From the IMG/VR virus record IMGVR_UViG_2778261420_000010: a stretch of DNA of 4,459 nt. One strand, given 5' to 3'. The notes beneath the pieces were generated by a model that saw only the letters and a list, made by a program, of their open reading frames with translations, made no database searches and had not been told where the DNA came from. The position numbers were made by a program, and so were the translations under genes. Every line of letters begins with the position of its first letter. Within the stretch, counting starts at the first letter, position 1. The DNA is from a virus (Duplodnaviria > Heunggongvirae > Uroviricota > Caudoviricetes). Shown in pieces: positions 1-4,459 of this stretch.

Positions 1-152
1 TGTTTTTGTCATGTGAGTCACCTCTGACTGAGAGTTTACTCACTTAGCCGCGTGTCCACTATTGCTGGGTAAGATCAGATCTTCGTAGGTTAGGAGAGCA
101 AAAGTACAATCTGCATTTGAATAATAATATTCATTAGGTGAAATATTTTTAT

Positions 153-187
153 TTGACTGTTCTAGTTATTATGCTTTTAGTTACAAT
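153..187 (+). promoter_or_regulatory. Putative sigma70-like promoter elements upstream of the AT-rich gene (TTGACT at 153-158; TACAAT at 182-187)
   Basis: Seen in sequence: consensus-like -35 hexamer TTGACT and -10-like TACAAT in an AT-rich leader ahead of the 215 start. The spacing between these two hexamers is about 23 bp, which is non-optimal, and alternative -10 candidates at canonical spacing (e.g. TTTAGT at 176-181) match poorly. The exact promoter is therefore unresolved. Confidence 0.2.
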
Positions 188-214
188 ACTCTCACTATTA
201 ACAGTGAGGTAAAA

Positions 215-769
215 ATGAACGAAAATTATATTGCATATGAGACACTTGTAGCAAACCGTGCTGCTGCTGAGTGGGCTTGTTGGGCAATGATTGCATCTTG
301 GGTGAGTGCTGGAGCTACTATTGTTACTTTGTTTTTGGCGTTCAAGGCATTATTTACGTGGCGGGAACAAGAGAAAACAAAAGTAAAAATAGATTTTAGG
401 AATGCATTAAAGAAATTAAAGACAGCTCTATTATTTATGCCTGTCAATATTGACCCCGAGCAACTCAATGATGAACGAGAGCAAGTTATTGCGAAATGGC
501 TATTTAAAGATGTAGATCTTATTAGTCAGCAAATTGAGTTGGGAGAAGAGAATGTTAAAAGATTTGATGAGCTTTTGAGTATTTTTGATTGTTGCCAATC
601 TTCATGGTTTGCGACAGAGCACTTATTTGATAATACTGAGTTAGAAAAAGTTTGGCATGAGTTCGAGTCTAACTTTAATAAATATATAAATGGTGGTGAG
701 AGTAAGGATTTACTTATGAAAATGCTTGATAAGCTCATCTCTTCTAGATTTGTATTTGAGTCAAGATAA
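215..769 (+). CDS. Hypothetical membrane-anchored protein, 184 aa, family not recognised; AT-rich moron and candidate accessory/defence gene
   Basis: Seen in sequence: ATG at 215 preceded by GTGAGGT (204-210) as Shine-Dalgarno with about 5 nt spacing; uninterrupted ORF to TAA at 767-769. The gene is markedly AT-rich and A/T-ending codons dominate, unlike the GC-rich genes downstream. The translation has a hydrophobic stretch at about residues 21-47 (ACWAMIASWVSAGATIVTLFLAFKALF) followed by a K/R-rich segment (WREQEKTKVKIDFRNALKKLK), suggesting N-out/C-in topology, then a charged D/E/K-rich domain of about 135 aa with no catalytic motif I can recognise. Confidence 0.75.
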   Translation: MNENYIAYETLVANRAAAEWACWAMIASWVSAGATIVTLFLAFKALFTWREQEKTKVKIDFRNALKKLKTALLFMPVNIDPEQLNDEREQVIAKWLFKDVDLISQQIELGEENVKRFDELLSIFDCCQSSWFATEHLFDNTELEKVWHEFESNFNKYINGGESKDLLMKMLDKLISSRFVFESR

Positions 770-819
770 TTGCCTTTGAGCATTTTTCTTTATTATTTTA
801 CTTATTATAAATTTTTTAT

Positions 820-1170
820 ATGCCCCCTAGAATCCCAAAAGCCTGCCGCGTTCGCGGCTGCCGCAATACCACGACTGACCCGTCAGGCTACTGCGAAAGC
901 CACAAAAGCGAAGGCTGGAAACAATACAAGCCAGGACAATCCCGTCACCAGCGCGGCTATGGTTCGAAGTGGGATGTTATCCGCGCGCGTGTGCTGAAGC
1001 GTGATAAAGGTTTATGTCAGTTATGTCTGCGTGCTGGTGTGGTGCGTGAGGCGAAAACCGTTGACCACATCATTCCTAAAGCGCATGGCGGCTCTGATGC
1101 CGACAGTAATCTGCAGAGCCTGTGCTGGCCGTGTCATAAGGCGAAGACGGCCCGTGAACGGCTGAAGTAA
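820..1170 (+). CDS. HNH endonuclease, phage packaging-associated type (HK97 gp74-like)
   Basis: Seen in sequence: the translation contains N-terminal Cys pairs (CRVRGC...YCESH), the HNH core DHIIPKAHGG...N, and a second zinc-knuckle CWPCHKAKT. Established knowledge: HNH proteins encoded immediately next to the terminase genes are a recurrent component of HK97-like packaging machines. The start ATG at 820 has no obvious Shine-Dalgarno (upstream is pure A/T), so translation initiation is unusual, but the N-terminus MPPRIPKACR is typical for this family. Confidence 0.88.
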   Translation: MPPRIPKACRVRGCRNTTTDPSGYCESHKSEGWKQYKPGQSRHQRGYGSKWDVIRARVLKRDKGLCQLCLRAGVVREAKTVDHIIPKAHGGSDADSNLQSLCWPCHKAKTARERLK

Positions 1171-3714: not shown

Positions 3715-4459
3715 TGTTCTTTTTGGGATTATTTCAACGAAAAAGTGACGCACCGGTGACCACGCCAGCAGAGCTGGCGGATGCTATCGGGTTGTCCTAC
3801 GACACCTATACCGGAAAGCAGATCAGCAGCCAGCGGGCCATGCGACTGACGGCGGTTTTTTCCTGTGTCAGGGTGCTGGCGGAGTCGGTCGGGATGTTGC
3901 CCTGCAACCTGTATCACCTGAACGGCAGCCTGAAACAGAGAGCCACTGGCGAACGTCTGCATAAGCTGATCTCCACGCATCCCAATGGCTATATGACGCC
4001 GCAGGAGTTCTGGGAGCTGGTGGTCACCTGTCTGTGCCTGCGGGGAAACTTTTACGCCTACAAAGTGAAAGCATTTGGCGAAGTGGCTGAACTGCTGCCC
4101 GTCGATCCCGGCTGTGTGGTACCGAAGCTTAACAGTAGCTGGGAGCCGGTCTATCAGGTCACATTCCCGAACGGCTCAACGGATGTGCTGACCCAGGAGG
4201 ATATCTGGCATGTGCGCACGCTGACGCTGGACGGTCTGGTGGGACTGAATCCCATCGCCTATGCCCGCGAGGCAATATCGCTGGCAGCAGCGACTGAAGA
4301 GCACGGAGCCAGACTGTTCAGCAATGGCGCGGTGACGTCCGGTGTGTTGCGTACAGAACAGACGCTGTCAGATCAGGCTTATGAGCGCCTGAAGAAAGAT
4401 TTTGAGGAGCGTCACACCGGGCTTGGCAATGCTCACCGCCCGATGATCCTTGAGATGGG
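3715..4459 (+). CDS. Phage portal protein, HK97 family (5' partial, continues past the window end)
   Basis: Seen in sequence: open frame from GTG 3715 with no stop to the window end (about 248 codons), with GGAGG (3703-3707) about 7 nt upstream. The translation contains segments I recognise as characteristic of HK97-type portals: AVFSCVRVLAESVGMLP, THPNGYMTPQEFWE, GLNPIAYAREAISLA, FSNGAVTSGVL, GNAHRPMILE. It is absent from the supplied ORF track only because no stop lies within the window. The first in-frame ATG is about 42 codons downstream, so the exact start is uncertain. Confidence 0.88.

Follow-up and report, generated by a model that had tools for sequence, protein, structure and literature searches.

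A 4,459-nucleotide stretch of DNA from the IMG/VR virus record IMGVR_UViG_2778261420_000010 (Caudoviricetes), referred to here as the window, carries a cargo gene at positions 215 to 769 that is, by its composition and placement, a foreign AT-rich single-gene moron lying between the lysis cassette and the HNH/terminase genes of an SfV/ST64B-like lambdoid prophage. The product is a membrane-anchored protein of 184 residues and belongs to phrog_6169, an uncharacterised family that is found almost only in prophages. Just upstream of the start codon, a predicted hairpin that pairs with the Shine-Dalgarno (SD) sequence lies beside a -10-like hexamer, and this arrangement is, on comparison of the leaders, a family-wide feature. 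We tentatively propose that the most likely role of the protein is the exclusion of other phages, which makes the gene a candidate for phage defence.

The stem-loop of the window leader (Table 1) leaves no base of the SD sequence unpaired, and RNA that starts at position 194 or later is predicted to be unstructured. Fifteen of 18 distinct leaders in the family fold alike despite differing SD sequences, the paired arms reading CCTCA/TGAGG, ATCCTCAT/ATGAGGAT, AATCCTC/GAGGATT, CTCCTT/AAGGAG or ACTCCC/GGGGGT. When 12 leaders were aligned, base pairing held in 89% of the cells, a share that falls to 49-61% if the partner is shifted along; both sides have changed in five of the eight pairs, and the covariation score was reached by none of 500 shuffles. 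Twelve of the 18 family leaders fold the whole SD sequence into a hairpin with an energy of -6 kcal/mol or lower; among the other SD-bearing gene starts of these loci, 7 of 138 do so (Fisher p = 2.5e-9). The position of the hairpin relative to the hexamer is likewise kept: in 20 of 24 distinct leaders the distance from the end of a -10-like hexamer to the hairpin helix is between -6 and +1 nt, and a transcript starting 7 nt downstream of the hexamer would therefore have its first base at the very end of the 5' arm or immediately beyond. Homologues with 59-70% amino acid identity keep ATAATGCTTTTnGTTACAAT upstream of the gene, with TAnAAT invariant, and a search of Rfam over the leader returned no family. 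A preliminary description of this DNA, made from its letters alone, had credited the gene with a strong SD sequence; the GAGG exists, but it is sequestered in the conserved hairpin at 187-211.

This layout suggests how the gene may be controlled. On transcripts from its own promoter, the first base would lie within the 5' arm or immediately beyond it, which would leave the ribosome-binding site free and allow translation in the lysogen, while read-through transcripts of the late operon would carry the whole hairpin and have their translation silenced. In this way the lysogen would produce the protein, whose level would stay low when the prophage itself grows lytically; the regulatory layout would make a lysogen-specific, possibly self-harmful function more plausible. 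A precedent is the fold-back inhibition of the IS10/Tn10 transposase, reportedly described by Davis, Simons and Kleckner in 1985, in which transcripts entering from outside are said to pair the ribosome-binding site, whereas native ones are translatable. The cargo gene is like IS10 in that transcripts from the native promoter would lack the upstream segment that pairs with the ribosome-binding site; it is unlike IS10 in that its fold-back is predicted from sequence and covariation, and in that it is cargo of a prophage late operon and not a transposase gene.

Further promoter-like elements were seen around the leader. In the comparison loci L030-L056, a palindrome, GGCATTCAnTGAGTGCC, precedes the homologous genes by about 40-75 nt (at 5925-5965 in L041 and 5930-5965 in L056) and may serve as an operator or as a second promoter; in several loci it is followed by TGnGATAAT, which resembles an extended -10 element, and it is kept between genes of about 30% protein identity. 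The window copy lacks this palindrome. On the minus strand, a promoter-like sequence at 254-225, TTGCTA-18-TATAAT (10/12), faces back over the start codon and the leader. Antisense RNA from this site was considered and set aside: the site overlaps conserved coding sequence, has no counterpart in L030 and is probably a matter of chance.

A sequestered ribosome-binding site and a membrane-targeted product would also suit a selfish, addiction-like toxic membrane protein, with a hairpin that merely limits toxicity, and the insertion sequences nearby, together with a frameshifted copy of the gene in Salmonella phage 118970_sal3, could reflect counter-selection. We hold this to be very unlikely. No partner that could act as antitoxin was found, and no antisense promoter that is conserved, the minus-strand site just described included; in its length of 184 residues and its folded cytoplasmic domain the protein differs from type I toxins; and the family is under strong purifying selection across genera.

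The protein has one hydrophobic segment (residues ~21-48), with one lysine or arginine before it and five after it. The same bias is found in 115 of 117 family members, in which the 15 residues flanking the segment hold on average 0.7 lysines and arginines before it and 3.9 after it, and because of this bias the positive-inside rule predicts that the acidic N-terminal tail is periplasmic and that the remaining ~135 residues are cytoplasmic. The topology first proposed, a single N-terminal transmembrane helix with a basic flank and a cytoplasmic C-terminal domain, is thus borne out by the family as a whole. An AlphaFold2 model built on 43 diverse sequences is confident (predicted local distance difference test, pLDDT, 92.5; predicted template modelling score, pTM, 0.74) and supplies the structure that the preliminary description had called for: a continuous helix over residues 3-73, comprising the tail, the transmembrane segment and the basic stretch, packs with four later helices in a helical bundle. 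A shallower alignment left the topology unchanged.

Among the same 43 members the juxtamembrane stretch is the most conserved part of the family, with W49, Q52, K56, K58 and F61 nearly invariant. The conserved positions are, taken together, A42, A45, W49, Q52, K56, K58, F61, P76, W131, E135, W147, Y157 and F181, and no catalytic-looking motif was found among them. The window protein matches phrog_6169 over its full length (E = 1.3e-74; residues 15-183 against profile positions 2-165 of 165), a family that PHROGs annotates as of 'unknown function'. An exhaustive profile search gathered 122 cluster representatives of 137-196 residues; all those that have names are called 'hypothetical', and none carries a precomputed Pfam domain.

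Many distant relatives align with the window protein over residues 1-80 only, and proteins of the phrog_16957 type have only the first ~40 residues in common with it, a part that includes the N-terminal tail, after which they continue into an unrelated C-terminal domain. The latter proteins (P0013, P0098, P0107, P0115, P0126, P0128, P0133 and P0134) have a conserved LPxKLEHGE motif in that domain. One of them, P0013, is encoded at 6001-6534 of L064 in the same slot, between spanin and terminase, and its DNA has the -10-like hexamer, the leader hairpin and the first codons in common with the window gene. On these grounds, namely the relatives that match residues 1-80 only, the phrog_16957 proteins that match the first ~40 only and the similar leader in L064, the family is best described as a conserved 5' head (-10-like hexamer, anti-SD hairpin, N-terminal tail and membrane segment) joined to apparently exchangeable cytoplasmic domains. 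Both PHROGs entries are without a function, and the head, slot and leader structure that they share are not recorded there.

Given these features, we favour a design like that of abortive infection, in which the swappable cytoplasmic domain would sense a phage product and the conserved membrane head would act as the effector. A pure superinfection-exclusion protein, which like HK97 gp15 or P22 SieA would stop DNA from entering through the inner membrane and kill no cells, would also be an inner-membrane moron product, and the part most widely shared in the family, the periplasmic tail and the transmembrane segment, lies where the ejection machinery of an incoming phage acts. Such a protein would be harmless to the prophage's own lytic growth, however, so that the predicted late silencing would be needless; moreover, the window protein is mostly cytoplasmic, it has no likeness to known superinfection-exclusion proteins, phrog_6169 carrying no such annotation. 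We consider a plain entry block quite improbable, and place it second to the abortive-infection-like design because the bulk of the protein is cytoplasmic, because that domain is swapped on a constant head and because late silencing is predicted.

The ORF (open reading frame) at 215-769, annotated in E. coli genomes as the 'hypothetical protein' WP_001005132.1, is evidently a real gene under purifying selection, since it is annotated, has homologues of the same length in several genera and shows a low ratio of nonsynonymous to synonymous substitution (dN/dS). Homologues of exactly 184 residues with 59-70% identity occur in Citrobacter, Enterobacter, Klebsiella, Kluyvera, Kosakonia and Serratia, and dN/dS in the family is 0.04-0.11 where dS is unsaturated. 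Its strand, start codon, coordinates and length are as they were first given, and so is its contrast in composition with the terminase genes: the ORF has 35.1% GC, and 30.3% at third codon positions (GC3), against 54.6-60.7% GC and 58-70% GC3 in HNH, terS, terL and ymfR. The spacers beside it have 28.5% GC (78-214) and 16% GC (770-819). Homologous genes always lie 8-17 GC points below their own locus.

In the related phages SfV and vB_EcoM-720R4 the slot is empty, and HNH directly follows Rz1. On alignment, similarity to the window disappears within the 3' end of Rz1 and returns about 8 nt before the HNH start codon, the point at which similarity to ST64B also resumes. Other genes fill the slot elsewhere: sb54 and sb55 in ST64B, two minus-strand hypothetical genes in E. 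coli 2014C-3338 and five small genes in strain 2c3. Among 5,426 complete E. coli genomes, 1,074 have the HNH-terS module and only 26-27 have the cargo (138-819). In relatives from IMG/VR and assembly contigs, the gene comes after holin, endolysin and spanin genes or other post-lysis cargo and before the terminase genes, and it keeps to this lysis-to-terminase slot even though the loci carry quite different terminases. The proposal of a variable cargo slot is therefore upheld by synteny, and a single cargo gene does stand between genes that are adjacent in related phages, as expected of a moron.

Morons of the lambdoid phages HK97 and HK022 were reportedly described by Juhala et al. in 2000 as promoter-gene-terminator units of deviant composition in late operons, and HK97 gp15 is said, after Cumby et al. 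in 2012, to be an inner-membrane exclusion protein. The cargo gene is like these classical morons in that it lies between conserved late genes, is AT-rich, has relatives with an empty site, belongs to a family in which a -10-like hexamer and a terminator of its own are widespread, and encodes a predicted inner-membrane product. Most homologues have an intrinsic terminator directly after the stop codon, such as ccgccttagggcggtttttt (seen in this position in L030, L032, L041, L042, L047, L048, L051, L052, L055 and L056). It is unlike classical morons and gp15 in that the window copy has no terminator, the protein has no sequence relation to gp15, its bulk is cytoplasmic, and a hairpin-masked ribosome-binding site abuts the -10 element. 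The initial assignment as a moron consequently stands as regards insertion site and deviant composition, and does not stand as regards the terminator; as to the promoter, it has the conserved -10 element only.

The orientation with the late operon, the position directly after the spanin genes and the want of a terminator, which joins the window copy transcriptionally to HNH-terS, might instead point to an accessory of the lytic cycle, that is, a membrane protein of the phage itself that tunes lysis timing or late membrane events. A single transmembrane helix with a soluble domain is an architecture met in holin regulators. Yet the gene is absent from SfV, from 720R4 and from about 97% of E. 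coli prophages with the same module, its composition is foreign, most homologues have a terminator of their own, and the read-through transcripts are the very ones with a predicted masked ribosome-binding site. We judge a lytic function to be improbable.

The family is rare, with two occurrences in 185,579 species-representative genomes. E. coli NCTC9041 has an intact, identical copy of the gene (L065 3578-4132) in a decayed prophage with a shortened HNH gene, where tail-fibre and invertase genes stand in place of those for terminase and head. In 118970_sal3 (L002 6145-6698), a 1-nt deletion in a short A run, at about window position 417, splits the gene into the annotated ORFs gp071 and gp072, and this copy is either a pseudogene or a sequencing error. 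A distant member in L056 (5992-6483) stands amid tail-like genes, 3' of a 310-residue ORF and 5' of a tape-measure-like ORF of 1,017 residues. One viral contig, L041, has two diverged paralogues about 1.6 kb apart (3839-4360, 173 residues, and 5995-6555, 186 residues), each with its own anti-SD leader hairpin. Near the lysis genes, L030 (2157-3928), L047 (4011-4619), L051 (3461-4270) and L052 (1234-3832) carry further strongly AT-rich genes of 30-36% GC, for the most part on the opposite strand, and the late region of these phages seems to collect several independent cargo genes.

That an intact copy is kept in the decayed NCTC9041 prophage would fit a lysogenic-conversion gene unrelated to phages, whose membrane product alters host physiology (envelope stress, transport, signalling or colonisation); the moron architecture and the inferred lysogen-specific expression would be the same, and nothing links the protein to phage components. 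The family is, however, nearly confined to one slot of the prophage late region, beside AT-rich cargo, and to very few genomes, and a general fitness gene gives no obvious cause for late silencing or for domain swapping. We regard such a role as rather unlikely.

The slot itself is known to house immunity genes. The Tai systems of phi80-like prophages, phage-inducible chromosomal islands and P4 satellites are sited 'upstream of the packaging module', and self-targeting by them has to be countered (He et al. 2024; PMC11364771). The cargo gene is like Tai in this position, in being moron-encoded as a single, highly diverged protein and in the problem of self-harm that its product would pose in the prophage's own lytic cycle; Tai is expressed in the lysogen (PMC11364771), as the cargo gene is predicted to be. 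It is unlike Tai in that it has no similarity to the phi80 right end and in that a transmembrane segment is not mentioned for Tai (PMC11364771). Furthermore, Tai avoids self-harm through a partner protein, Ati (PMC11364771), where the cargo gene would rely on an RNA fold instead. We rank phage exclusion first because the protein would be made in lysogeny and little of it in lytic growth, a pattern that suits a function of use to the lysogen but detrimental to the development of its own phage, and because the slot is known for immunity genes with a self-harm problem.

As regards architecture only, a likeness may also be drawn to PdpSau of Staphylococcus aureus prophages, which is presented as a single-protein, membrane-anchored determinant of abortive infection (PMC10127798). 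Both would be single prophage genes with a membrane anchor and a proposed role in protecting the population. The host phyla differ, and homology between the two is not expected.

Several findings weigh against a role in phage exclusion and against the control proposed for it. None of the known defence or exclusion proteins in the libraries searched showed similarity to the product (the known anti-phage families being the PADLOC-DB v2.0 models), WP_001005132.1 is not in the DefensePredictor supplementary tables, and the predicted fold is a generic helical bundle. The candidate promoter has no -35 element, the transcription start is assumed, and a consensus scan for plus-strand sigma-70 promoters upstream of the gene called none; of the promoter-like leader first described, what endures is the conserved -10-like TACAAT. 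Four of the 24 family leaders have no hairpin, and the hairpin of the window, at -9 kcal/mol, is moderate and may merely tune translation or stabilise the mRNA. Lastly, a scan and a comparison with homologues found no terminator in 770-819 of the window copy, and transcription would therefore run on into HNH-terS.

In the searches themselves, the window protein had no significant match in Pfam, PADLOC, NCBIfam or PDB sequences, and the 43 diverse relatives had no consistent match in Pfam, PADLOC or NCBIfam; the earlier statement that the domain has no assignable motif agrees with this, and the defence-family search suggested with it gave PADLOC E values of at least 0.02. The best of these, CARF_TM (E = 0.021), is below threshold, and no model was matched by more than one of the 43 members. 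SLATT was rejected since SLATT_1 scored 16.4 bits against a cut-off of 41, matched weakly in two of the 43 members and has two transmembrane helices against one here. For Tai, the 43-member family profile was run with hmmsearch against five phi80 right-end proteins, taiEcA/orf63 included, and gave at best E = 0.11 (a value that refers to this five-sequence database) and at most 0.6 bits. The Gifsy defence protein GiPD474 (PMC12724215), which contains an ATPase domain, differs in architecture and was set aside as unrelated. A literature search for WP_001005132.1 and for the PHROG identifier found no mention of either.

Taking phrog_6169 and phrog_16957 together, one may further speculate, although we think it unlikely, that the two form a novel, modular class of single-protein membrane immunity determinants carried by prophages, in which a constant head would bear interchangeable cytoplasmic sensors and an RNA fold-back, with no antidote protein, would avoid self-harm.

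The surroundings of the cargo gene in the window are as follows. Bases 1-77 match annotated IS3 copies in 1,664 plasmid records with 100% identity, and thousands of E. coli matches span this part only. The adjoining codons translate to DLRRLGEQKYNLHLNNNIH followed by the stop, the same residues with which intact LysC of E. coli TUM9812 ends. IS3 thus interrupts lysC 19 codons before its stop, and the spanin of the prophage copy is therefore probably defective. IS3 also stands between the late operon upstream and the cargo gene. The AT-rich leader of the preliminary description has to be shortened accordingly: only 138-214 is true intergenic leader, 78-137 being lysC and 1-77 IS3. Downstream, the order of genes is HNH, P27-family small terminase (PF05119), large terminase, ymfR and portal. 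The records of SfI, SfII, SfIV, SfV and ST64B end at window positions ~1168-1280, in the HNH-terS spacer (1171-1295), and for this reason the spacer probably holds the cos site of that phage group.

Table 1. Features of the cargo gene, its leader and its neighbours in the window
Feature	Position	Strand	Remarks
Cargo gene	215..769	+	ATG start, 184 aa, WP_001005132.1, phrog_6169
-10-like hexamer TACAAT, candidate cargo promoter	182..187	+	conserved across homologues; no good -35
Leader stem-loop (predicted)	187..211	+	directly follows TACAAT; -9.1 kcal/mol
Hairpin 5' arm, anti-SD	187-196	+	pairs with 203-211
Hairpin 3' arm with SD GAGG at 206-209	203-211	+	GAGG fully paired in the fold
N-terminal tail, aa 1-~21	215..277	+	net acidic, helical, predicted periplasmic
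Transmembrane helix, aa ~22-48	278..358	+	from hydropathy; A42, A45, W49 invariant or nearly so
Basic juxtamembrane helix, aa 49-73	359..433	+	motif W-R/K-x-Q-E-K-x-K-x-K-x-x-F
Cytoplasmic helical bundle (predicted), helices 81-97, 101-133, 142-158, 164-176	455..742	+	conserved W131, E135, W147, Y157
AT-rich spacer, right end of inserted module	770..819	+	16% GC, no terminator
HNH endonuclease gene, first of conserved packaging module	820..1170	+	PF01844, E = 2.8e-16
Rz1-like o-spanin gene lysC, last 19 codons and stop	78..137	+	translates to DLRRLGEQKYNLHLNNNIH, then stop
IS3 element, left end	1..77	-	terminal repeat ends at 77; context, outside the cargo
Transposase orfA start (MTKT...) of IS3	12-1	-	from translation

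Were the function not anti-phage, the gene would be an ordinary hypothetical moron with an interesting leader, and a bare membrane moron is ordinary; it is the -10/anti-SD arrangement, the modular head and the absence of known relatives that make the candidate directly testable. How a prophage defence spares its own phage has so far been solved case by case, with antidote proteins. If the proposed reading is true, the prophage immunity repertoire of the Enterobacterales would gain an easily cloned, uncharacterised single-gene family, and cargo genes in late operons would have a simple and general route to expression in lysogeny and silence in lytic growth, while the conserved head with its swapped C-terminal domains may serve as a handle for finding further cargo genes.

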